From NCBI GenBank assembly GCA_965233585.1, contig CBDDTI010000731.1, positions 1 through 32,736 of the forward strand: a stretch of 32,736 nucleotides of DNA, given 5' to 3'. The notes below the pieces were generated by a model, which was not told where the DNA came from, searched no databases, and was given only the letters and a program-made list of their open reading frames with translations. The stretch's first letter is position 1. Each line of letters opens with the position of its first letter. Source of the DNA: a bacterium. GTDB taxonomy: Bacteria; SAR324; NAC60-12. The translations under genes were made by a program, and so were the position numbers. Positions 3,376 through 32,736 of the stretch are shown here, piece by piece.

Positions 3376-5138
3376 TACCTTTTTTGGCTTACACCCGGCT
3401 GCTGAAATTCATCCTAATGTAGGTTCTGCTGCTGTCTGCATGGGGTTAAAGATGAGGTTGAATATTAAATGAATCTGGCCTTAATTTACTTAGGGCTACC
3501 CAGTATAGTATTATGTTGCAAGGCTCATCAAGCTAGTTAAAAGGTTTCATTGAGAAAAGTAAATCTGGCTTTCATTGTCCTCGGAAAACTTCCTGAATTC
3601 TTTACTGACCTTCTTCCTGGGACTGCGTCCGCCAGCTGCACGTTATTGTAAAACTCCACATGCAAATTTTAAATTTTTTTGTGGGACAATGACTGCCCCG
3701 AGCAAAAATACCATTCAAGAAACATTTTTCCCTTGTCCATTCTTTCTTTTTTTTTTTAATGAGCTCAGCCAGGAGCGGGACTTTGCTAGGCATTTGCTCT
3801 TCACTTTTCTGCAATTTGCTCTTCACTTTTCTGCCTAAATAAATGGATGATTGACTGAATGAATACATGAATGATTGGTTGAATTATCATTGTCTGCTTT
3901 TATATGCGCTCTGCAAATTATTGTAGTGGTTGTAACTGGGTCGTATGGGTTTGACAGTTTTCAGAAGAGATCCACAAAATCTTTGCTGACCTTCTGTCTG
4001 GCTCTCTGCCCACCTCCTAATCGATGTCCTCACTGTCTGCTTTCAACTGCTGCCTGCAAATGGCCAAAGAGTGTAGTGATTGATTAGGGTCTAGGGTTAA
4101 GGGTGAGGGTTAGGGTTCATGGTTATGAAATCTACATTACTAGGGCTGACTGAGTAAATCACAAATAAGTAGCGATATTGTCTACATCAATTGCACTGTG
4201 CACTGTTTAACTTTCCTGTCAAATAGAGTATTTTGTCAAAAGTGGTATAACTTTCATAATTGTATTTGTCGCTTGTATGTGTTTGTGTTTGTATTTGTAA
4301 CTGTTTGTTTTGACAGTCGCTTGGTGTATATCTCTCTCTCTCTCTCTCTCTCCCTCTCTCTCTCCTCTGTCTCTCTCCCTGTCTCTCTCCCTCTCTCTTT
4401 CTCTCTCTCTCTCTATCTTCTCTCTGTCTTTCGTCTCTCTTTTTGACTGAGCAGTTCCTGTCGTCATGTTCGCTTGAGTCATTTTTTTGTGTCTTGGTTG
4501 TAGGTATTCTTTCGTCATTTCGTCACTTCATGTTGTTTTAAAAGATCTTCCAACTGTTAAAAAAAAAACGTATTTGTATTCGTCTTCACTTTCACAGCAT
4601 TTTTCATTAGACACGATACACATTCACTTTTAACAAAGTTCGGCAAAGCTTTCAGAACACATCAATACAGAACTTCAGCTCTCATTCTTTTTCTTATTGC
4701 ACACTTGCACAGTGTACCGGTATACCCTGTCAACATTGCACTTGCACTTCTTTGAATGTCAGTCTAATAAGTAGAAAACTCTTCTTTCAGATATTTAAAG
4801 CCCTTCCTTACCTTTGCTGGATTGCGGCTGATGACATTGCTGACCTCCTTCTCTAACACTTAGCTCGGTAACTCCGTCTGATCTCTGCAAAGAGAAGAAG
4901 GAAATGGTGGCGGTTACCTAAGTTCTCCTGAGATAATTTCCATGATGTTCTTTACGAAGGATGACACGCATTTTATTACTGTCAAATTATTGTTTCTTTA
5001 TTTTCTCATTGTGGGCTTTCATGAAGGAGACCTCTGTTGGCCTGTGTACTTAAAACAAACCTCAAAACAGAAATAAGCCTAACAACAACAAAAAAATAAC
5101 AAAAACAACAAGAACAAGAACAAGAACAACAACATTAA

Positions 5139-7589: not shown

Positions 7590-7997
7590 ATGGCTCGAAC
7601 CAAGCAAACAGCTACAAAATATGTTGGTCCAAAAAAGGCCCCTAAATTGAAAGCCAAGGCCTCTCGGAAGAGTGTCTCCGCCACTGGTGGTATCAAGAAG
7701 CCCCATCGTTACCGTCCCGGTACCGTGGCTCTTCGTGAGATTCGTCGGTACCAGAAGTCAACTGAGCTCTTCATCCGCAAGTTGCCCTTCCAGCGTCTTG
7801 TTCGCGCGATTGCCCAGGATTTCAAGCTCGGTCTTCGCTTCCAGTCGTCGGCTGTCACGGCTCTTCAGGAAGCCAGCGAGGCTTATCTAGTGGGTCTTTT
7901 TGAAGACACCAATTTGTGCGCCCTCCACGCTAAGCGTGTGACCATAATGCCAAGGGACATGCAACTGGCGCGGCGCATACGAGGCGAGCGTTCCTAA
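7590..7997 (+). CDS. H3: Divergent histone H3 variant (canonical/H3.2-derived core, remodelled N-terminal tail), intronless
   Basis: 135-aa [11 protein letters not shown]...[24 protein letters not shown]...KLPFQRLVR...[35 protein letters not shown]. Full length with ATG and TAA, no frameshift. Confidence 0.95.
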
Positions 7998-8866
7998 ACT
8001 TTCCTTTTAGTATTATTTTTTATGAACTATTCTTGTTGGTGCTTAAATTAATGTTTATGTTGTGCCTTCTTTTTTTTATAATAGTACATCTCTTTTTCCC
8101 TTTCTCTCATGTCTGTATAAAATAATCGTAAACTTTCCCTTTTTGTCACCTTTGTTGAGTATTTTGTCCATGTTCAACTTGTCTGCTTGTCTGTTTGAAA
8201 GCTTTTAGTACTAAATATAGTCCTATCAAAATCGACCAGAGTGCTTTGAAAGCTTTTTAAATAAATCTATCAATTCTGATCGGCTTTTGGTAAACAAAGT
8301 CCCCACCCCTGGGTTAGGGTTTTCAGAGCTTTCCAATGCTGTCTTGGATGTTGAAATTCATTAAGTAACACCCTGAAGACGTTTTAACGCCCACTGAGAT
8401 GATTCCCTAACCCTAGCCACAGTCAATGTTCCAGTGAAACGTAGAGAAGTACCCCTTTTGAAAATGTAGAGGTTAATATTGAAAATTGAGAAAGTAATGT
8501 TGAAAAAATCTCTAGTAGTTAGTAGCTGTGCTGCTGGTTCTCACAGTTTAAAAGTCAACGAAATTATGGTTGTGCTCAAGTTAATTAAGGATAGGGCTGT
8601 AGTGTTAAGGTGAGGAAATGTTGAAAAAAATTGCAGTAGTTAGTAGTTGTGCTACTATGTCTATCAGTTTAAAGGTCAATAAACTATCGTTAGAGTTACG
8701 CTAGTTGTTACCAAGGTTAAGGTTAGGGAAGTTTGTCTAAAGCTTAGGGGAAGGGTAGTTTGCAATGGGCGAAAGTGAGAGGGTTTTTGTGTTGAAAACA
8801 GTTACATGTATGTGCAATGTGAAATTGGTATGTACAATGTGAAATTGGGTGAAACAGTCAGGAAAG

Positions 8867-11287
8867 TTACATCAGCTTTCGCTGCTTCTTGGCCAGGTTC
8901 CTCCACTTGTCCCTGCAGTCTTGCTCCGTGCGGAAGTTGCGGGCACAAGTGGGCGGAACCGGCCTGAAAACGCTCGGCGCAGGCGTTCGTCTTCTAGCGA
9001 GCGGATACCGTTGCAATATTTCGGCCTCTTCCTCTGGGCTGAATGGTTTTCTTTTTGGCTTTGCTGTGTCAGCCAGAGTTCTCCACCGTAGGAATGGTGA
9101 CGATTGCGTCGTTGGCCTCTTCTGGTGAGGATCCGTTCTCTTGTAAAACAAAGAAGCTTGGGTCGGAATTTGTTCTTCTACTTCTTCTTCTTCTTGTTCG
9201 TCTTCTGTCTCTTCATCCTCCTCTTCCCATTCATCTTCGTCTTCTTGATCTTCTTCTTCGTCACTGCATTCGTCTTTGTCATCTTCTTGTTGTTCTTCTT
9301 CTTCCTCCTCTTCTTCTTCTTCTTCTTGTTCGTCTTCTTCATCTTCTTCTTGTTCTTCTTCTTCTTCTTGTTCTTCTCCTTCTTTGTCTTCGCCTTCGTC
9401 TCTGTGTTCTTTTTCTTGGGTTTGCTCTGGTCCTTTTTCTCCTTCTCCTCCTTCTTTCTGCCGACCGTGCTTGTCGGTGAGAACGATCGGTTGCAGACGA
9501 CCTTGGTTGGGTTGAATTGTTACCGTGTCATCGTCCTCACTCTCTTCATCGGAATCATCATCGATGACATATCGTCGGCCTTTCTTTGGAGTGCTGCTAG
9601 TCCCGCTGTCTTCGTCAGATTCTGTTATTGTTCTGTCCAGCCTGTGCTTTCCTTTGCGTACTGGAGTCCGCGGGTTTGCCTTTTGGATTGTCTTCTTCTC
9701 CTTCTTCTTCTTCTTGGGTGGGAGCTCTTGTTCATCATCGCTTGAGATGATGATGATTTGAGGGACGAACGGGTCCTTCGTGTCGTGCTCCAGGAGCTGG
9801 TGCGAGAAGGCCTCACGTGCTCGCTTTAAGCTTTTGAAGGCCTTCTCTGCCACTGAGTCCTGGAGCAAGCGACGGTAATTTTTGTCAGCTGTTGACTCTG
9901 AATGGCTCATCAGCCTAGCCGCATGGCTCTTTCCGCTGTCGTCGAGCGTTAGGCAAGATGCGGCCGTGAGCTTCCTCGAAAGAGTTGCATTTGGGATCCT
10001 CTGTCTGGTATCCTTTCCAAAGCGCATCGAGTGCATGTGATGGTGTTTGCTTTTCACTTCCTTGCCGGTGGTGGTGACCAGAAAGTTGTCGGAGGTTGAC
10101 TTTGGGCGGATCCGTGATGCCCACGTTTCCGCCCAGCTTTGGAGCTGCTTCTCCATGAACAGCTTGGCCCGTCCTTGGCGCTTGGTTTTATGGCGACGGA
10201 CCTTGACTCTCAGAGTTCCTCCTTTCCTCCTTTGCCTTGCGGTGCCTTCTTTGAACTCTGTCAATGTCATGTTGGTGACGGCACCAACACGCTGGCCATT
10301 GCCCAGAGTCAGATGTACGAGGAGACATCGCATGTAGAACAAGGTCTCAGTAAATGTGAGGAAGTGCCCTGCTTGGGCCTTCCTCTGCAACACCGTCATT
10401 TTCTGCGCCGTTTGTCTGTGGGAGAGAATGTCGTCGATAGCCGACGGTAGTATGTCAAACTCCTCGTCCTCCTCCGCGGCCAGGGACTGTTGCTCTCTTG
10501 TGTCCTGCTGGAACGTGATTTTAATCGCCTTCAGCTTGGCCATTGTGGATTTCACCACCTCCTGGTCAAACTGGTCATTGCTCCCCATCCAATGGAAGAG
10601 CATGACCAGTGAATCCATCCTCGTGACCATGCCGTGTGGTCCGGTTCCTGACACCTTCTGGTAGACATTGAGTTTCTCCTCAATGGCAGTTGCGTTGAAG
10701 AATTTCTGCATGTCGACTTTCTCGTTGTCCAGCCAGTAGGCCATTTGAGCAATTTGGCGAGTGTACAAGTCGCAGGTGGACTTGCTGAGGGCCTTGCGTT
10801 TGTCCACCCGCAATGGCAGCCAGCGGGTGAACTCGCGCAGGGGGCCCTCGTCGACGCTGTGCTTTTTGTTGAGCCCCGCCATCTTGACTTTATGTGCCTG
10901 TTCGGCCGCCGTGCGATGCGTAAAGTGTCCAGGCACTGCCTGGACACGGTACGTGCCACCGGCCCACTTGCTGCAACCTTCGCCTGATGGCCCGGGATCA
11001 CTTGCGTTTTGGGTTGGTGGCGTTCCATTGGTGCCGGTTGATTCTTGGTCGTTGCTGCTGGTCGAGGTGGTTGGTACTGTGTTGGTGAAGAACGAGGCAA
11101 TGTTAGCCGTACGCGTGTTGTGTTGAGCATACGCTTCCTTCACTCGCTTCTGCAGGTCGACTTGCTGGGCCATGGTAAGGCCCTTGTGGTGCCGGTGGAT
11201 GTGCCGGCCCAGACGGTCCGTGGTGATGCCGCACTCACACTTGTAGACCCGTCTGGACATGGCTGGTCGTGGGTCTGTAAACCACAT
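8867..11287 (-). CDS. Tyrosine recombinase (Crypton/CryptonV-like) with N-terminal Cys/His finger, acidic tract and C-terminal Myb/SANT-like domain
   Basis: Open ~806 codons. The track start at 11290 is TTG; ATGs are at 11287 and 11260. Catalytic set in ORF-track numbering: GQR334VG..NMT..EF, HK368T, T436LSR439K, MSH463S...NY472. N-terminus CECGITTDRLGRHIHRHH; C-terminus RKPFSPEEEAEIL...RTEQDCRDKWRNL. Visibly more GC-rich than the flanks. Confidence 0.88.
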   Translation of the reverse strand: MWFTDPRPAMSRRVYKCECGITTDRLGRHIHRHHKGLTMAQQVDLQKRVKEAYAQHNTRTANIASFFTNTVPTTSTSSNDQESTGTNGTPPTQNASDPGPSGEGCSKWAGGTYRVQAVPGHFTHRTAAEQAHKVKMAGLNKKHSVDEGPLREFTRWLPLRVDKRKALSKSTCDLYTRQIAQMAYWLDNEKVDMQKFFNATAIEEKLNVYQKVSGTGPHGMVTRMDSLVMLFHWMGSNDQFDQEVVKSTMAKLKAIKITFQQDTREQQSLAAEEDEEFDILPSAIDDILSHRQTAQKMTVLQRKAQAGHFLTFTETLFYMRCLLVHLTLGNGQRVGAVTNMTLTEFKEGTARQRRKGGTLRVKVRRHKTKRQGRAKLFMEKQLQSWAETWASRIRPKSTSDNFLVTTTGKEVKSKHHHMHSMRFGKDTRQRIPNATLSRKLTAASCLTLDDSGKSHAARLMSHSESTADKNYRRLLQDSVAEKAFKSLKRAREAFSHQLLEHDTKDPFVPQIIIISSDDEQELPPKKKKKEKKTIQKANPRTPVRKGKHRLDRTITESDEDSGTSSTPKKGRRYVIDDDSDEESEDDDTVTIQPNQGRLQPIVLTDKHGRQKEGGEGEKGPEQTQEKEHRDEGEDKEGEEQEEEEEQEEDEEDEQEEEEEEEEEEEQQEDDKDECSDEEEDQEDEDEWEEEDEETEDEQEEEEVEEQIPTQASLFYKRTDPHQKRPTTQSSPFLRWRTLADTAKPKRKPFSPEEEAEILQRYPLARRRTPAPSVFRPVPPTCARNFRTEQDCRDKWRNLAKKQRKLM

Positions 11288-11535
11288 CAATGGAAAGCCA
11301 ACTGATCAGCGAATTGTTCGTGGTTAAGAATTCTACATTACCAAGGTTGACTGAGTCTATCGAAAATAAATGGCGATATTGTCAAATCAATTGCACTGTG
11401 CACTGTTTAACCTATCGTTTAAATTTAGTATTTTGTCAAAAGTGGCATAACTTTCATAATTGTATTTCTCGCTCGTGTGTATTTGTTTTTGTATTTTATC
11501 TGTTTGTTTTAACAGTCGTTTGGTGTAGATCTCTA

Positions 11536-11577
<42 letters not shown>

Positions 11578-12119
11578 CCCCTCTCTCTCTCTCTCTCTCC
11601 TCGCCCTGTCGGTCATCTTTCTTTTTGACTGAGCAGTTCCTGTTGTCATGTTCGCTTGAGTCAATTTCGTTTGTTTCTTGGTATTCTTTCGTCATTTCGT
11701 CACTTCATGTTATTTCAAAAGGTATTCCAAATGGTGAAAAAAAGCGTATCTGTATTTGTCTTCACTTGAACAACGTATTCTCATTAGACAGTATACACAT
11801 CCATTTTTAACAAATTTCGTCAAAGCTTTTAGAATCTATCTGTACACAACTTCAACCCTCATTCTTTTTCTTATAGCACACTGGCACAGTGTACCGATTT
11901 ACCCTGTTAAAATTGCACTTTCACTTATTTGACTGTCAGTTCTTTTATATAATTAAAAATTAATCATTCCTCACCTGGGGTAGCGGGTGGCTGATGACCA
12001 TGCTGATCTCCTGTCTGACTGCTCGGTAATTCCGTCTGATCTCTGCAGAGAAAAAAGGTGATGGTGGTGGTTACTAGTACTCAAGAAGAAAAGATTACCT
12101 TCGTCACAAACCCTATTCT

Positions 12120-14334: not shown

Positions 14335-14932
14335 TTCTCTCTTTTCTCCCTCTCTGTTCTACCTCTCTTTCATCATTTTTATGGTTATGAAATCTACATT
14401 ACTAGGGTTGAGTGTGTCAATCAAAATTAAGTGCCGATATTGTCTACATCAATAAGCTTTTTGTCTTTACTTTTATGCAATCTTGCTTAAATAAGTGCAT
14501 GAATGATTGAGTGGATAAATGAATGATTGATTTAAATATCAATGTTTGCTTTGATATGCGCTCTGCAAATTGTTTAAGATTGTAGTGGTTGTTATAAGGT
14601 CGGATGGGTTTTACAGTTTTCAGAAAAGATCCATGAAATCGTTACTGACCTTTTCTCTGGCTCTCTGCCCACCTCCTAATCCGTTTCCTCACTGTCAGCT
14701 TCGAACTGCTGCCTGCAAACGGACAGAGAGTGTAGTGATTGACTAGGGGTTAAGCTTAGGGTTTGGGTTAGGGTTAGGGTTTGGGGTTTAGGGTTTATGG
14801 TTAGGGTTTGGGTTGCGGTTAGGGTTGATTTTGGTGAAATCTACATTGCTAGGGTTGACTGAGTCAATCACAAATACGTGGCGATATTTTCTACATCAAT
14901 TGCACTCTGCACTTTTTAATCTTCCTTTTTAA

Positions 14933-21301: not shown

Positions 21302-21314
21302 TGCCTTGTGTGGC

Positions 21315-22467
21315 TTTGAAAGCCTGCCCAGATATCAATTTTAGTTGGCTTTTGATAAACAAAATATCCCCTTGCAAATAATTTTCAGTTTAGCTTTCCA
21401 CTGTTGTATTGGATGTTGAAATCCATAAAGAATAAGTGTGAAAACGTTTTCACGCACACTGACATGATTGCAGAAAGTTGTACATCTTGTAACCTTGCAT
21501 CCATGCTCATTGTACTATGATTTTATAGTTTCCCGTGTCCATCTTTGAAAGCCTGCCCAGATATCAATTTTAGTTGGCTTTTGATAAACAAAATATCCAC
21601 TTGCAAAGAATTTTCAGAGCTTTCCACTGTTGTATTGGATGTTGAAATCCAAAAAGAAAAAGTTTGAAAACGTTTTCACGCACACTGACATGATTGCAGA
21701 AAGTTGTACATCTTGTAACCTTGCATCCATGCTCATTGTACTATGATTTTATAGTTTCCCGTGTCCATCTTTGAAAGCCTGCCCAGATATCAATTTTAGT
21801 TGGCTTTTGATAAACAAAATATCCCCTTGCAAATAATTTTCAGTTTAGCTTTCCACTGTTGTATTGGATGTTGAAATCCATAAAGAATAAGTGTGAAAAC
21901 GTTTTCACGCACACTGACATGATTGCAGAAAGTTGTACATCTTGTAACCTTGCATCCATGCTCATTGTAGTATGATTTTATAGTTTCCCGTGTCCATCTT
22001 TGAAAGCCTGCCCAGATATCAATTTTAGTTGGCTTTTGATAAACAAAATATCCCCTTGCAAAGTATTTTCAGAGCTTTCCACTGTTGTAATGGATGTTGA
22101 AATCCATAAAGAATAAGTGTGAAAACGTTTTCACGCACACTGACATGATTTCAGAAAGTTGTACGTCTTGTAACCTTGCATCCATGCTCATTGTAGTATG
22201 ATTTGACAGTTTCCCGTGTCCATCTTTGAAAGCCTGCCCAGATATCAATTTTAGTTGGCTTTGATAAACAAAATATCCCCTTGCAAAGTATTTTCAGAGC
22301 TTTCCACTGTTGTATTGGATGTTGAAATCCATAAAGAAAAAGTGTGAAAACGTTTTCACGCACACTGACATGATTTCAGAAAGTTGTACGTCTTGTAACC
22401 TTGCATCCATGCTCATTGTAATATGATTTTACAATTTCCCGTGGCCATCTTTGAAAGCCTGCCCAGT
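21315..22467. repeat. ~225-229-bp tandem satellite, about 5 copies
   Basis: GAAAGCCTGCCCAG anchors at 21318, 21547, 21773, 22002, 22228 and 22453. A single unit is present in copy A at about 7190-7425. Confidence 0.92.
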
Positions 22468-23384: not shown

Positions 23385-24890
23385 CTTTGTCCAATTGTGG
23401 TACCAGGCAAACTTAGCACAACAAAAAATACTGGTGGTTTGTCCAATTGTGGTTTAGGCAAACTTAATACCACACAATGATGTCCCCAAAACTGGTGCCT
23501 TGTCCAAGTGTGGTCTCAGGCAAACTTAACACCACAACCCTAAGTCCCACTGACTAGTGCTTTGTCCAATTGTGGTCTCAGGCAACCTTAAAACCACATT
23601 ATCTTGTCCCACTACCTGGTGTTTTGTCCAATTGTGGTCTCAGGCAAACTTAGCACCAAAAAATTGTTGTCCCGATAACTAATGCTTTGTCCAATTGTGG
23701 TCTTAAGCAACCTTAACACCACATATTCACGTCCCACTTACAAGTGCTTTGTCCAATTGTGGTCTCAGGCAACCTTAGAACCACAATATCTTGTCCCACT
23801 ACCTGGTGCTTTGTCCAATTGTGGTCTCAGGCAAACTTAGCACCCAAAAATTGTTGTCCCGATAACTAGTGCTTTGTCCAATTGTGGTCTTAGGCAAACT
23901 TAACACCACAACCCTAAGTCCCACTGACTAGTGCTTTGTCCAATTGTGGTCTCAGGCAACCTTAAAACCACAATATCTTGTCCCACTAGCTGGTGCTTTG
24001 TCCAATTGTGGTCTCAGGCAAACTTAGCACCAAAAATTTGTTGTCCCGATAACTAGTGCTTTGTCCAATTGTGGTCTTAGGCAACCTTAACACCACATAC
24101 TCACGTCCCACTTACTAGTGCTTTGTCCAATTGTGGTCTCAGGCAAACTAAGAACCACAATATCTTGTCCCACTAGCTGGTGCTTTGTCCAATTGTGGTC
24201 TCAGGCAAACTTAGCACCCAAAAATTGTTGTCCCGATAACTAGTGCTTTGTCCAACTGTGGTCTTAGGCAACCTTAACACCACATATTCACGTCCCACTT
24301 ACTAGTGCTTTGTCCAATTGTGGTCTTAGGCAAACTTAGAACCACAATATCTTGTCCCACTAGCTGGTGCTTTGTCCAATTGTGGTCTCAGGCAAGCTTA
24401 GCACCAAAAAATCGTTGTCCCAATACCTGGTGCTTTGTCCAATTGTGGTCTTAGGCAACCTTAACACCACATATTGATGTCCCACTGACTTGTGCTTTGT
24501 CCAATTGTGGTCTTAGGCAAACTTAACACCACATATTGATGTCCCACTGACTTGTGCTTTGTCCAATTGTGGTCTTAGGCAAACTTAACACCACGTATTG
24601 ATGTCCCACTGACTTGTGCTTTGTCCAATTGTGGTCTTAGGCAAACTTAACACCACATATTGATGTCCCACTGACTTGTGCTTTGTCCAATTGTGGTCTC
24701 GGGCAAACTTAGAACCACAATATCTTGTCCCACTACCTGGTGCTTTGTCCAATTGTGGTCTTAGGCAAACTTAACACCACATGTTTACGTCCCACTGACT
24801 AGTGCTTTGTCCAATTGTGGTCTCAGGCAAACTTAGAACCACATTCTCTGGTCCCACTGACTGGTGCTTTGTCCCATTGTGGTGTTTGGT
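23385..24890. repeat. 62/63-bp satellite, ~24 units, with a 187-bp trimeric higher-order structure and an internal dyad
   Basis: Core GTGCTTTGTCCAATTGTGGTCT(C/T)AGGCAA(A/C)CTTA..ACC recurs with spacings 62, 62, 63. The variable halves recur in the order ABC DBC ABC DBC DBC EEEE. Confidence 0.93.
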
Positions 24891-25494
24891 TTAAGCTAAC
24901 ACCACAAGTTATGTCCCAGAAAAGTTTTTGATTTGTCCAGATGTGGTGTTTGGGAAAACTACGGACCACATTTCGAGTCCCGGGACAAGAAAATTGTCCA
25001 GATGTGGTGCTAAGCTGTTGTGCTAGGTGTGCCAAGGACAACAATTTCTGTCCCGGGACGTGAAATTGTCCCGGGACAAAATTTGTGGTGTTAGGATGCT
25101 CATCTGAACACCACAATTGGACGATGTGGTCTAATGTTCCGAAGATGTGGTCTAAGTTTCCTAAGATGTGGTTAGGGTTAGGCCTAACCACATTGTCCCG
25201 GTTTTTGGCCTGGGTTGTCCCGATTTTTACCTGGGTTGTCCCAGATATTTCTGGGTTGTCCCTAAATATTTCTGGGTTGTCCCAGATATTTCTGGGTTTC
25301 TAAATTTTTTAGGTTTGTCCCGTTGTTGTGCTAGGTTGTCCCATCGTTGTGTTAGGTTGTTTTTTTTTTTTTTTAAATTGTCCTCTTGTGGTGCTAGGTT
25401 GTTGCAGTGTGGTTTTAGGCTGGCAATCTTCAATCTGTCCAGTTGTGGTGCTAGGTTGATTTTGAATGTGTCCCGTTGAGGTGCTAGGCTGTCC

Positions 25495-26238
25495 CAATGT
25501 GGTGTTAGGCAAACTTAGAACCACACAAAAATGTCCCAGCAACTGGTTCTTTGTCCAAATGTGGTGTTAGGCAAACTTAGAACCACACAAAAATGTCCCA
25601 GCAACTGGTTCTTTGTCCAAATGTGGTGTTAGGCAAACTTAGAACCACACAAAAATGTCCCAGCAACTGGTTCTTTGTCCAAATGTGGTGTTAGGCAAAC
25701 TTAGGACCCCATAAAAATGTCCCAGCAACTGGTTCTTTGTCCAAATGTGGTGTTAGGGAAACTTAGGACCCCATAAAAATGTCCCCGTAACTGGTTCTTT
25801 GTCCAAATGTGGTGTTAGGCAAACTTAGGACCCCATAAAAATGTCCCAGCAACTGGTTCGTTGTCCAAATGTGGTGTTAGGCAAACTTAGGACCCCATAA
25901 AATTGTCCCCGTAACTGGTTCTTTGTCCAAATGTGGTGTTAGGCAAACTTAGGACCCCATAAAAATGTCCCAGCAACTGGTTCTTTGTCCAAATGTGGTG
26001 TTAGGCAAACTTAGGACCCCATAAAATTGTCCCCGTAACTGGTTCTTTGTCCAAATGTGGTGTTAGGCAAACTTAGGACCCCATAAAATGTCCCCGTAAC
26101 TGGTTCTTTGTCCAAATGTGGTGTTAGGCAAACTTAGGACCCATAAAAATGTCCCCGTAACTGGTTCTTTGTCCAAATGTGGTCTTAGGCAAACTTAGTA
26201 CCACATAATGATGTCCAATAACTGGTGCTTTGTCCATT
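25495..26238. repeat. Second, more homogeneous 62-bp satellite block, ~12 units
   Basis: GTGGTGTTAGGCAAACTTAG(A/G)ACC(A/C)CA.AAAAATGTCCC.G.AACTGGTTCTTTGTCCAAAT at 25561, 25623, 25685, etc. Confidence 0.93.
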
Positions 26239-26520
26239 TTTATGTGCTGGGATAGAAATTGTACCCCTTTAGAAAATGTAGAAGTTAATATTGAAAATTG
26301 AGAAACTAAAGAAGTACCCCTTTTGAAAATGTAGAAGTTAATATTGAAAATTCAGAAAGTAATGTTGAAAAAATCTCTAGTAGTTAGTAGCTGTGCTGCT
26401 GGTTCTCACAGTTTAAAAATCAACGAAATTATGGTTAGGGTGGTTGTTCTCAACGGTAATTGGTCTTAGGATATGTTGAAAAATTGTAGTAGTTAATAGT
26501 TTTGCTACTTTTTTCTATCA

Positions 26521-26720
26521 GGTCAATAAAATTATGGTTAAAGTTATTTAAAGGTCAAAAAGTATGGTTAGAGTTTTTAAAGGTCAGTAAAATTATGGTT
26601 TGAGTTCTTTAAAGGTCAATAAAATTATGGTTATAGTTATTTAAAGGTCAATAAAATTATGGTTATAGTTATTTAAAGGTCAATAAAATTATGGTTATAG
26701 TTATTTAAAGGTCAAAAAAA
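26521..26720. repeat. ~32-bp AT-rich minisatellite, ~6 copies
   Basis: AAAGGTCAATAAAATTATGGTTATAGTTATTT at 26611, 26643, 26675 and others. A single related unit lies at ~8671 in copy A. Confidence 0.9.
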
Positions 26721-26827
26721 TTACTTCAAGTTCGATCTCCGGACTGGTCAGAACGTTTTTCCCAAGTCCGCTCCGCCGATCGAAGTCTATCCAGTAAGGG
26801 TAGCTGCGAATGGATCGCTGTTTATCG

Positions 26828-27566
26828 CATTCGGTCCGCAGCCAGGCACTCGTGCTCCTTGTGTCTTCCTGGTACGTGGTCTTGATGGCCTTGATCTTGG
26901 CCATTGTTGATTTCACCATCTCCTTGTCAAACTGGTCATTGCTCCCTATCCATGTGAGGAGCATGCCCAGTGAGTCCATACAGGTGACCAGGCCGTGCGG
27001 TCCAGTGGTGGACACCTTTTGGCAGAGATTGAGCTTCCCCTCGATCACTGTTACATCAAGAAACTTCTCCAGGTCCACTTTGTCGCTGTCCAGCCAGTAG
27101 GCCATTTCTGCAATTTGGCGGCGGTAGAGATCACAGGTTGACTTGCTTAGGACACATCAACCCGCAATGGCAGCCAGCGGGTGAACTCGAGCATGGGCCC
27201 TCTTCGGTGCTGTGCTTCTTCTCAAGCCAAGGCGCCTTGACTCCATGTGCTCGGTCGCAGTACGATGCGTAAAGTGGCTGGGCACTGCCTTGACACGGTA
27301 CGTGCCACCGAACAACTTGCTGCAACCTTCGCCTGGTTTCCAGGGACCACTTGCGTCGTGGGTTGGGGGCGTTCCATTGCTGCCGGTTTAATGTTGGCCG
27401 TTGCTGGTTGAGGTAGTTGGTACTGTCTTGGTGAAGAACGAGGCAATGTTACCCGTCTGCACCGTTGTTTGGCACCATCGGACATAGTCGATGGCCGATG
27501 GTGCGAGGTCGAACTCCTCGTCTAAGCCTGTCTGGACGTGACTGGTCTTGAGTCTGTAAAATACAT
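26828..27566 (-). pseudogene. Decayed, rearranged 5' half of the tyrosine recombinase gene (no catalytic domain)
   Basis: MYFTDSRPVTSRQA* vs MWFTDPRPAMSRRVYK; NIASFFTKTVPTTSTSN; MAYWLDSDKVDLEKF...GSNDQFDKEMVKSTMAKIKAIK. It has an early stop and frameshifts, and homology ends near residue 272. Confidence 0.9.
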
Positions 27567-27839
27567 CAATGGAGAGCCAACTGATTAGTGAATTGTTCAT
27601 GGTAATGAAATATACATTACTAGGGTTGACTGGGTCAATCACAAATAAGTATCGATATTGTCTGCATCAATTGCACTGTCCACTGTGTAACCTTCCTCTT
27701 AAATAGAGTATTTTGTCAAAGTGGTATAACGTTTATCATTGTATTTCTCGCTTGTGTATTTGTGATTGTATTTGTATGTGTTTGTTTTGATAGTGGCTTG
27801 GTGTAGATCTCTATCTATCTATCTATCTATCTCTATGTC

Positions 27840-27884
<45 letters not shown>

Positions 27885-27887
27885 GTC

Positions 27888-27923
<36 letters not shown>

Positions 27924-28171
27924 GGGTTGGAGTTAGGGTTAAACCTAAGGGTTAGGGTTCATGGTTATGAAATCTACATTACTAGGGTTGACTGAGTCAA
28001 TCACAAATAAGTGGCGATGTTGTCTACATCAATTGCACTCTGCACTGTTTGACGTTCCTTTTGAATAGAGTATTTTGTCAAAAGTGGTATGACTTTCATA
28101 ATTGTATTTCTCGCTTGTGTGTACACGTATTTGTATCCCTTTGTTTTGACCGTCGCTTAGTGCAGATCTCT

Positions 28172-28219
<48 letters not shown>

Positions 28220-30051
28220 TCTCTCTCTCATTCTCTCTCTCTCCTCCCTCTCTTTTGTATATTTTTAACTGAGCAGCTCCGACCAGGGTCATGTTCGCTT
28301 GAGTCAATTTCGTTTGTTTCTGGATGGTATGTATTCTTTCGTCATTTCGTCACGTCATGTTGTTTCAAAAGGTCTTACAATTATTGAAAAAAAAAACCGT
28401 ATTTGTATTTGTCTTCACTTTGAAAACGTATTCTCGTAGACACGATACACTTTGACTTTCGGCAAATTTCAGCAAAGATTTCAGAACATATCTGTACACA
28501 ACTTCAGTGCTCATTCTTTTTCTCATTGCACACTGGCACAGTTTACCGGTATACCCTGCTAACATTGCTCGTGCACTTCTTTGACTGTGAGTCTAACAAA
28601 TAGAAAACCGTTCTTTTAGATATGTAAAACCATTCCTTACCTTTGCTAGATTGCGACAGATGACACTGCTGACCTCCCGTCTGACTGGTCGGTAACTCCG
28701 TCTGCTCCCTGCAAAGAAAAAAAAGGAATGGTGGCAGTTACCTAAGGGTTCATGAGATAACTTCCATGATGTCATTTCAGAAAGATGACATGCATTTTAT
28801 TACTACCACATTATTGTTTCTTTATTTTCTCATTGTGGGCTGTTTTGAAGGAGACCTCTGGTCTGTTGGCCTGTCTACATAATATTATTGTAAAACAAAC
28901 CCAACAACAGCAATATGCAACAACAACCACAACAACAACAACTACAACAACAACATTAACAACAAGAACAAGAACCAAAACAATAACAACAAAAACAACA
29001 ACAAAAACGTACCTATTCTCTGCGCTAACACCCGCCTGCTGCGGTGCATCCTCTTTTGCTGGTAGGTTCTGCATGATGTCTGGATGGTGTTAAAGATGAG
29101 GTTGAATATTAAATGAAGCTGGCCTTAATCTACTTAGGGCTACCCTGTAGAGTGTAATGTTGCAAGGATCATCAGGTACCAAAAGCTAATGTAAAGGCTT
29201 TCATTGAGAAGAGTAAGTCTGGCTTTCATTGTCCTCGGAAAACTTCCTGAATTCTTTACTGACCTACCTGGGTCCTGGACCTGCCTGCTGCACGGTACCC
29301 TAAAACGCCACATGCACATTTTAAGCTTTCTTGGAGGGCAATAACTGCCCCAAGCAAGAATATCACTCAAAAAACATTTATTTCTTTTTTATCTTCATCT
29401 ATTCTCTGGCCTTTTTTTTCAAGTGAGCTCAAGCAGGGATGGGGCTTTTATAAGCATTTGCTTCTTACTTTTCTGCAATCTTGTGTAAAAAAATGGATGA
29501 ATGATTGAATGAAGAAATGAATGATTGATTGAATTATCATTGTATGATTTGATATGCGCTCTGCAAATTGTTTAAGATTGTTGTGGTTTCGTATGGGTCT
29601 GACAGTATTCAGAAAAGAACCATGAAATCTTTACTGACCTTCTCCGTGGCTCTCTGCCCACCTCCTAATCGATGTCCTCACTGTCTGCTTCGAACTGCTG
29701 ACTGCAAACGGACAAAGAGTGTAGTGAATGATTAGGGTTAAGGTTAGGGTAAGGGTTAGGGTTAGGGTTTGGGGTTTAGGGTTTATTATCAGGGTTAAGG
29801 GTAAGGGTTGATTGTTGTGAAATCTACATTACTAGGATTGTTGTGAAATCTACATTACTAGGATTGACTGAGTTAATCACAAATAAGTGGCGAAATTGTC
29901 TACATCAATTGCACTGTGCACTGTTTAACCTTCTTTTTAAGTAGAGTATTTTATCAAAAGTGGTATCACTTCCATATTTGTATTTCTCGCTTGTGTATAT
30001 TTGTATTTGTATCTGTTTGTTGTGACAGTGGCTTGTTGTTGATCTCTCTTC

Positions 30052-31398: not shown

Positions 31399-31738
31399 TA
31401 CATTACTAGGGTAGTCTGTGTCAATCACAATTAAGTGGTGATATTGTCTACATCAATAGGGTTAGGGTTAGGGTTTGGGGTTTAGAGTTTATGGTTAGAG
31501 TGATGGTCAATAGTTAAGGTTAGGGGTGAGTGTTGTGAAATGTACATTACTAGGGTTGACTGAAACAATCAAAAGGAAGTGGCGACATCGTCTACAGCAA
31601 TTGCACTGTGCACTCTTTAGCCTTCCTTTTAATAGAGTCTTTTTTTTTCAAAAGTGGATAACTTTCATAATTGTTTTTCTCGCTTGTGTGTGTGTTTGTA
31701 TTTGCATTTATATCTGTTTGTTTGACAGTCGCTTGGTG

Positions 31739-31774
<36 letters not shown>

Positions 31775-31809
31775 CGCCCTCTCTTTCCTCATTCTTTTTG
31801 ACTGAGCAA

Positions 31810-32736
31810 TTTAGGGGTAGGGTTAGGTTTAGAGTTAGTGGTTAGAGTTAGGGTAAGAGGTTGGGTCCATGGTTACAAAATCTACATCACTAAGGTTGAC
31901 TGTGTCGATCACATTTAAGTGGCGATATTGTCTACATCAATAGAGTTACAGTTAGGTTTACGGTTAGGGTTAGGGGTTTAGAGTTTATGGTTAGACCTAG
32001 CGTTAAGGTTAGGTTTGACTGTTGTGAAATCTACATTACTAGGGTTGACTGTGTCAATCACAATTAAGTGGCGATATTGTCTACATCAAGAGGGTTACGG
32101 TTAGGTTTAGGGTTAGCGTTAGGGTTTGGGGTTTAGAGTTTATGGTTAGAGTTAGGGTTAAGGTTAGGGTTAGGTTTAGGGTTAGCGTTAGGGTTTGGGG
32201 TTTAGAGTTTATGGTTAGAGTTAGGGTTAAGGTTAGGTCTCACTGTTGTGAAATCTACATTACTAGGGTTGACTGTGTCAATCACAATTAAGTGGCGATA
32301 TTGTCTACATCAAGAGGGTTAGGGTTAGGTTTAGGGTTAGCGTTAGGGTTTGGGGTTTAGAGTTTATGGTTAGAGTTAGGGTTAAGGTTAGGGTTAGCGT
32401 TAGGGTTTGGGGTTTAGAGTTTATGGTTAGAGTTAGGGTTAAGGTTAGGGTTAGGTTTAGGGTTAGCGTTAGGGTTTGGGGTTTAGAGTTTATGGTTAGA
32501 GTTAGGGTTAAGGTTAGGGTTAGGTTTAGGGTTAGCGTTAGGGTTTGGGGTTTAGAGTTTATGGTTAGAGTTAGGGTGAAGGTTAGGGTTAGGTTTAGGG
32601 TTAGCGTTAGGGTTTGGGGTTTAGAGTTTATGGTTAGAGTTAGGGTGAAGGTTAGGGTTAGGTTTAGGGTTAGCGTTAGGGTTTGGGGTTTAGAGTTTAT
32701 GGTTAGAGTTAGGGTTAAGGTTAGGTCTCACTGTTG
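31810..32736 (+). repeat. Degenerate TTAGGG array with the 69-bp higher-order unit, running off the window end
   Basis: Same 69-bp unit and ~60-bp module as at 1-1035. Confidence 0.9.

Follow-up and report, generated by a model that had tools for sequence, protein, structure and literature searches.

A conserved Myb-like C-terminal domain in a Crypton-like tyrosine recombinase from a telomere-repeat-rich eukaryotic contig

Why does a tyrosine recombinase carry a small helical domain at the far end of a long acidic linker? The question is raised by a single-exon open reading frame (ORF; 8867..11290, minus strand; 807 codons plus a stop codon at 8867-8869, first ATG at 11287) on contig CBDDTI010000731.1 of assembly GCA_965233585.1, hereafter C731, the window (positions 1-32,736) being the entire contig. 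The product of this ORF, P0001, combines a Crypton-like tyrosine recombinase, an acidic linker and a C-terminal Myb-like domain. A prediction made from the sequence alone had described the tail as resembling the telobox of telomere-binding proteins and had suggested that it could tether the recombinase to TTAGGG tracts. Our analysis indicates that the tail is probably a family-typical C-terminal module, predicted to bind DNA, of animal Crypton-like tyrosine recombinases; the telomeric part of the proposal is doubtful.

P0001 is a tyrosine recombinase of the Crypton kind, consisting of a recombinase only and no reverse transcriptase, an assignment that we make because of its family profile, its core fold, a conserved R-K-R-H-Y set and the lack of any reverse transcriptase match. 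Residues 150-510 (9761..10843, minus strand) form a two-domain recombinase core, modelled by AlphaFold2 at a pLDDT of 93.0, with which Foldseek retrieved XerA (E 2.4e-5), lambda Int (1.7e-4), XerH, XerD and Cre at a probability of 1.00. The candidate catalytic residues R334, K368 (in an HKT motif), R439, H463 and Y472 are kept in 61-70 of 72 aligned sequences. When compared with solved structures, the family profile matched XerA (E 8e-11), a XerC-like protein (4e-9) and XerD (6e-6); a narrow recombinase profile run against the PDB gave noise alone (HIV capsid, E 0.12). An exhaustive HMMER search with residues 1-520 as query recovered 255 proteins at E<=0.001, and Phage_integrase was matched by 20 of the 109 first homologues (best E 6.5e-10), P0001 itself having no direct Pfam match to a recombinase family. 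No reverse transcriptase family was matched by Pfam in P0001 or, at E<=0.001, in the 109 homologues, and the same holds for DUF3504 (E<=10 for P0001, E<=0.001 for the homologues). Word-indexed protein searches with the whole of P0001, with residues 110-520 and with residues 738-807 returned only P0001 itself. The relatives are mainly animal, falling in protein atlas clusters whose commonest phyla are Chordata and Mollusca. Near the N-terminus, residues 16-35 (11186..11245, minus strand) hold a putative Cys2-His2-like motif, YKCECG...HIHRHH, which is recognised from sequence only, has no Pfam match and recurs in P0005, P0011 and P0012.

Behind the core runs an acidic low-complexity linker (residues 506-745; 9056..9775, minus strand) with 90 D/E and 34 K/R in 240 residues, encoded by what appears on the plus strand as a TTC-type tandem repeat. 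The last 62 residues of the protein (746-807), encoded by 8870-9055 on the minus strand, read KRKPFSPEEEAEILQRYPLARRRTPAPSVFRPVPPTCARNFRTEQDCRDKWRNLAKKQRKLM. The original prediction had placed at 8870..9056 a Myb/SANT-type domain of homeodomain-like character, at the extreme C-terminus, behind a long flexible linker and fused to a recombinase. All of this agrees with the ORF, with the fold model and the 240-residue linker described here, and with a core fold that matches XerA, lambda Int and Cre; the residues do lie at the extreme C-terminus, and only the end coordinate needs correction, 9056 being one base past the codon boundary at 9055.

The domain goes beyond chance resemblance because four lines of evidence converge on it: a Pfam match, equivalent modules in the distant homologues P0009 and P0006, its recurrence in 64 of 151 family proteins, and a fold model. 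The Pfam family is Myb_DNA-bind_6 (PF13921), matched at 23.0 bits by a 77-residue piece and at 23.6 bits by an 80-residue piece, against a cut-off of 22.9 (E 6e-5 to 9e-5). P0009 is 42% identical to P0001 in the core and P0006 about 30%, and both carry the same C-terminal module. The P0009 tail, which reads ...KRRFSSAEERAIVERVPLRPGLAPATSLFRPVPSPCKIMGRTPADCRDKWRNMAK, is 45-48% identical to that of P0001 and keeps the string "CRDKWRN", with a linker that cannot be aligned; in general, the P0001 linker is unalignable with the linkers of its homologues, whereas the tail domain is conserved. A seed hidden Markov model (HMM) of the three tails (P0001, P0009 and P0006) matched the extreme C-termini of P0142 (1.2e-7), P0040 (2.9e-5) and P0024 (1.2e-4). 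A local iterative HMM then extended the module to 64 of 151 family proteins, where it follows the core and, in 48 of the 64, ends within 20 residues of the C-terminus; the iteration carries some circularity, from which the seed step and the module's constant position are free. The family tail consensus comprises a basic run, [FWY]-[ST]-x-x-E-E-x-x-I-x-x-x-F, P-[ST]-L-x-x-C-x-x-F-L and R-[ST]-x-K-Q-I-Q-D-K-[VI]-[RK]-N-[LI]. By an approximate motif count across the 64 tails, the position held by tryptophan in the last helix of P0001 is V in 30, I in 14 and W in 4, and the D-K-x-R-N core appears to be a family-wide trait with V or I and not a borrowed telobox. Positions 8524-9274 are covered, with zero differences, by contigs from four sequencing runs that belong to a single study, represent no more than two samples and may be the source of the window.

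The lack of a three-helix fold would have counted against the original prediction, but AlphaFold2 returns one for the last 80 residues with a 36-row alignment, namely a basic arm followed by a homeodomain/Myb-like bundle at a pLDDT of 86.5, with helices at model residues 25-34, 45-48, 53-57 and 62-79. On the protein, all on the minus strand, these correspond to the basic N-terminal arm KPKRKP (residues 744-749; 9044..9061), which stands just ahead of helix 1 and aligns with the arm RRIRRP of AtTRP1; helix 1, PEEEAEILQR (residues 752-761; 9008..9037); a helix 2 region (residues 763-786; 8933..9004); and, from model and alignment, a long recognition helix 3 of 18 residues (789-806; 8873..8926), in which R793-D794-K795-W796-R797 are encoded at 8900-8914. 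Helix 2, PAPSVFRPVPPTC, is atypical, as the original prediction had cautioned: it is proline-rich and modelled as two short helices, and this feature is kept in P0009. A frameshift was considered as the cause of this odd segment and rejected, because the other two minus-strand frames contain stop codons; its retention in P0009 also speaks against it.

Structural comparison places the tail model in a clear fold class. Foldseek listed homeodomains, c-Myb, CDC5 and TRF2, all at E>0.001. VIA-align against 48,161 chains ranked homeodomains at Z 6.3-5.5, with the telomere-binding homeodomain 4j19 at 5.7, Cdc5 at 5.6, TRF1 at 5.2 (rmsd 2.7 A over 49 residues), Tbf1 at 4.9, and NgTRF and GT-1 at 4.8; 49 of the 50 rows listed are DNA-binding homeodomains or Mybs (Z 6.3-4.5, 45-68 residues aligned). 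The comparison of TRF with other SANT families, which had been suggested as a check, thus yields the homeodomain/Myb class but no subfamily, the scores being tied. In the protein atlas, the best named cluster for the tail was Myb_Rap1 at 0.80, a value that the tool's own figures equate with chance.

How might such a tail serve a recombinase? We infer that it binds DNA. The tail is a K/R-rich arm and three-helix bundle, attached behind the catalytic core through a long linker that is acidic and disordered. By recognising one specific DNA sequence, whether the element's own ends or its target, it would keep the recombinase in place there, a role comparable to that thought to be played by the GCR1_C domain in fungal Cryptons. 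Most likely, the minor groove would receive the arm and the major groove helix 3, which is long and basic; with 17 K/R and 7 D/E among its 62 residues, the domain carries a net charge of +10. Since R-D-K-W-R in helix 3 resembles the contact residues of teloboxes, the best candidate for what the P0001 and P0009 lineage would read is a G-rich motif of GGGTTA type.

How telobox-like, then, is this helix? A profile of the four W-type tails, run against the PDB, placed AtTRP1 first (E 0.0027, with arm and all helices aligned), followed by zebrafish Terfa (0.0033) and TRF1 (0.008), and telomere-binding proteins filled 15 of the top 20 rows, although many of these rows are repeat entries of a few TRF proteins and all of the E-values are marginal. 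Other Mybs ranked lower, with MYB21 at 0.023, Reb1 at 0.042, GT-1 at 0.07 and c-Myb at 0.6 or worse. With a broad family profile, Trichomonas Mybs came first (MYB21, 4.4e-5) and RTBP1, NgTRF1 and TRF2 followed at 0.005-0.02, 10 of the top 20 rows being telomere-binding. The tail as a single sequence matched Reb1 best (5eyb; E 0.047, not significant), through the string DCRD(R/K)WR. In the HMMER alignment, R793-D794-K795-W796-R797 fall on K421-D422-R423-W424-R425 of TRF1. According to PMC2377444, TRF1 K421, D422 and R425 and their NgTRF1 equivalents make major-groove base contacts (Table 3 of that paper), and the basic arm provides a minor-groove contact through TRF1 R380 or NgTRF1 R577. The candidate contact residues R793, D794 and R797 are kept in P0009 but not in P0006 (L-Q-R-W-K) or P0142 (Q-D-R-W-A). 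P0001 lacks the telobox V-D-L before K-D-K-W, having E-Q-D-C before R-D-K-W, and its tail lacks the telobox hallmarks of helices 1 and 2, the core motif of which is G-x-G-x-W-x-x-I. The claimed telobox resemblance therefore survives in part: by sequence ranking, helix 3 is closer to teloboxes than to generic Mybs, but the helix 1-2 hallmarks are missing and the E-values are marginal, so that the likeness appears genuine at helix 3 and marginal overall. The accompanying caveat, that QCRDKW-type helices also occur outside teloboxes, was well placed, Reb1 having the string C-R-D-R-W-R.

Is the gene itself associated with telomere-type DNA? C731 contains 104 copies of TTAGGG on the plus strand and 13 of CCCTAA, where about 8 per strand are expected. 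A strand-biased abundance of TTAGGG or CCCTAA is also seen in other contigs of the same bin, namely C13 (117/22), C201 (35/132), C152, C610, C742 and C423. Large telomere-repeat arrays lie at 74-1034 and 31462-32725 and short ones at 1793-1871, 14747-14826 and 29732-29783, the nearest arrays being more than 5 kb from the recombinase gene. A repeat block (11316..12074, plus strand) starts some 30 bp upstream of where the ORF begins. This block, of about 90 bp or more, has 21 copies (for example at 4115-4200, 1031, 11316, 17088, 19075, 27595, 27957 and 32014), which within the assembly are confined to C731, and it contains the palindrome TTGACTGAGTCAA. Its left edge adjoins TTAGGG-like tracts in other copies: an exact TTAGGG occurs no more than 60 bp upstream of 16 of the 21 left edges, in a uniform orientation, although 16 of 21 overstates independence because one larger duplication accounts for at least 3 of the 16 junctions. 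Of the remaining left edges, two adjoin the recombinase gene instead, and a further two a TC repeat. The block may be a recombination site, a promoter or a plain part of a subtelomeric unit.

The second of these gene-bearing edges belongs to a broken copy (26785..27477, minus strand), which covers residues ~54-286 at 58-63% identity with two stops and lacks the catalytic half and the Myb tail, from about residue 287; P0001 is the sole full-length copy in the assembly. The offset of about 30 bp between repeat block and recombinase start is common to both copies. They share about 8436-12074 and 26302-28741, the second being internally deleted, and the broken copy retains the 3' flank (26302-26436 versus 8436-8571, at 96%). 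A 32-bp unit repeated 6.5 times (26520-26723) occupies the place of its missing 3' half, and the intact copy has two degenerate 32-bp units in its 3' flank. At 8405-8416, about 20 bp beyond the 3'-side point at which the two copies begin to align, lies CCCTAACCCTAG, a telomere-type dimer in the orientation opposite to the rest of the contig. No joint skipping the whole gene was seen in the contigs of the four sequencing runs. The block edges tie the gene neighbourhood to telomere-like tracts, an association that is suggestive only and does not by itself demonstrate insertion into them.

A six-frame HMM scan of the assembly revealed three further family members, all on minus strands. The distantly related recombinase on C174 (L003; 9078-10766; HMM E 4.4e-37), whose ORF stops inside helix 3, has a C-terminal Myb that clears the PF00249 cut-off (31.4 bits versus 24.4), and its best solved relatives are Terfa (2.9e-4), TRF2 (1.7e-3) and also TRF1, with TRF proteins in 16 of the top 20 rows. 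This Myb is TRF-like in helices 1-2 (HGYGQWTAIL), but its helix 3 has neither the W nor the D/R contacts. Homology between it and the P0001 tail was considered and found unsupported, with a probability of 1.7% when the family tail profile (A4) was compared with the C174 Myb and a BLASTP E-value of 0.62 between P0001 and the C174 protein. The recombinases on C277 (L004; 6856-8133) and C534 (L005; 2400-3275) end differently, in a tail of about 110 residues, …GDVVALVVANS…VFVAKVLRISDD…, that matches no Pfam family. Because C277 carries so different a tail, the tails of this recombinase family may be interchangeable targeting modules. C174, C277 and C534 have one to four TTAGGG each (on C174, four TTAGGG and two CCCTAA in 19 kb), and the same scan found no family recombinase on the telomere-repeat-rich C13 and C201. 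C-terminal TRF-like Mybs therefore recur in family recombinases, and the association with TTAGGG flanks is confined to one contig.

Several observations weigh against reading the tail as a family-typical DNA-binding module: its Pfam score sits at the threshold, the whole-protein Pfam search gave no Myb match, and among 36 tails just 8, 5 and 4 touch any Myb model at E<=1; its proline-rich helix 2 is unlike known Mybs; Foldseek found nothing for it at E<=0.001, and the VIA Z-scores of 5-6 are within the range that the tool calls common; a scan for related DNA in metagenome and genome contig sets, with the P0001 protein and alignment A3 as queries, returned no relative; and the two gene copies yielded neither precise element ends nor target duplications. 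The threshold score, together with the presence of one full and one broken copy in the assembly, might even suggest that the resemblance is a chance feature of a decaying, functionless C-terminus. This we regard as extremely unlikely, because the conservation data contradict it: the module is kept in P0009 and across the family, and its fold is predicted with confidence in a frame that stays open over 807 codons. A SANT-like module that binds chromatin or protein, such as a histone tail or a partner, and reads no DNA sequence would account for a shared fold, for weak Pfam matches scattered among several Myb/SANT models, for a degenerate helix 2 and for the quite different tail on C277, but it fits poorly with a domain of net charge +10 in which both the arm and helix 3 are basic. 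SANT domains that bind histones have an acidic third helix, and the closest structures to the tail are DNA-bound homeodomains and Mybs, so we consider this explanation improbable, if less so than chance.

A more serious contender, which we nevertheless hold to be doubtful, is a tail of telobox type: by binding double-stranded TTAGGG, such a Myb would anchor the recombinase, together with the repeat units that the enzyme moves, to telomere-like arrays in a single orientation. The W-type profile ranking, led by AtTRP1, the alignment of R793, D794 and R797 with TRF1 contact residues and of the basic arm with that of AtTRP1, the excess of TTAGGG on the contig, the uniformly oriented block edges with the recombinase gene at two of them, and the Pfam-positive, TRF-related Myb on C174 all speak for it, as does the description of telomere-repeat-specific tyrosine recombinases in nimaviruses (PMC10871703). 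Yet the E-values are marginal over a few recurring TRF proteins, Reb1 has the same C-R-D-R-W-R string, P0006, of the same subclade, has L-Q-R-W-K, and the family as a whole mostly has V or I where P0001 has W. The genomic evidence is similarly qualified by the distance of the nearest arrays, the shared origin of some block junctions, the scarcity of TTAGGG on the three other recombinase contigs, the absence of family recombinases from C13 and C201, and the C174 Myb without the W and D/R contact residues. The broader proposal, in which the element family aims its recombinase at TTAGGG-type repeats through a TRF-like Myb on a flexible tether and thereby builds or reshuffles the subtelomere-like units of block plus telomere repeat that fill the contig in one orientation, is unlikely. 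Our preferred reading remains that of a family-typical, predicted DNA-binding module.

C731 was placed in an otherwise prokaryotic bin (12.0 Mb, 747 contigs, 92% complete), but it is itself eukaryotic: it carries a histone H3 gene together with microsatellites and satellite arrays, and the bacterial bin probably includes several eukaryote contigs. The H3 gene (7590-7997, plus strand, 135 codons) is intact and convergent with the recombinase gene, with a Pfam Histone match at E 1.8e-43 and a canonical histone fold; its N-terminal tail is altered, lacking the usual ARKS at K9. The further tandem arrays are a 226-bp unit repeated five times (21314-22466) and two related 62-bp satellites, about 77% alike, repeated 23 and 12 times (23430-24883 and 25490-26236).

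What would such a tail mean for these elements? Eukaryotic tyrosine-recombinase transposons are poorly understood, their choice of sites included; that a Myb-like tail is conserved across a large family in animals offers a concrete handle on target choice. If the tail does read telomere-type repeats, a cut-and-paste recombinase would be linked to the building of subtelomeric repeat arrays, and mobile DNA would have a second way of establishing itself in telomere repeats, alongside retrotransposons and nimaviruses. Otherwise, the Myb-like tail would still be worth annotating as a new domain architecture for Crypton-like recombinases. Searches of the open literature, Repbase reports excepted, turned up no description of a Myb-like tail in a Crypton-like element, and the papers listed on telomeric repeats and tyrosine-recombinase transposons, judged by titles and abstracts, mostly concern fungal Starship elements, none with such a domain.

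Fungal CryptonF elements are among the closest known systems. According to Kojima and Jurka 2011 (PMC3212892), they carry a C-terminal GCR1_C DNA-binding domain, and animal Cryptons of groups A and I are described as having no C-terminal domain. P0001 resembles CryptonF in pairing a tyrosine recombinase, and no reverse transcriptase, with a C-terminal domain that binds DNA (by prediction in P0001), but its tail is Myb-like and not GCR1_C; unlike CryptonA, the DUF3504-type animal Cryptons, it has no DUF3504 match. With the nimavirus recombinases, as described in PMC10871703, it has in common a eukaryotic setting, an N-terminal C2H2-type zinc motif (putative in P0001) and an association with telomere-motif repeats; those recombinases reside in 300-kb viral genomes and target (TAACC/GGTTA)n, and the word 'myb' does not occur in the text of that paper. 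Reb1 (PDB 5eyb) has DCRD(R/K)WR in helix 3 as P0001 does, but it terminates transcription in its host and contains multiple Myb repeats.

The telobox Mybs of TRF1/TRF2, Terfa and plant TRP/TBP/RTBP proteins are likewise single three-helix domains at the C-terminus, each preceded by a basic arm and with a helix 3 of the form R-T-x3-(C/L)-(R/K)-D-(K/R)-W-(R/K). The P0001 tail departs from them in having a proline-rich segment in place of the G-x-G-x-W-x-x-I helix 2 and, in helix 3, C for L and Q for V. There can be no plant-type fourth helix, since P0001 ends one residue after helix 3, and no TRFH domain is present (no TRF family at E<=10 in the whole-protein Pfam search), the tail being joined to a recombinase and not to a shelterin scaffold. 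The telomere-specific LINEs TRAS and SART of the silkworm also combine a Myb-like domain with telomeric repeats in one orientation, but they do so with an endonuclease and a reverse transcriptase, unlike the recombinase of P0001. Should the tail prove to read telomere-type repeats, the P0001 family would be a DNA-transposon counterpart of these telomere-specific retrotransposons, and a possible source or borrower of telomere-binding Myb domains.

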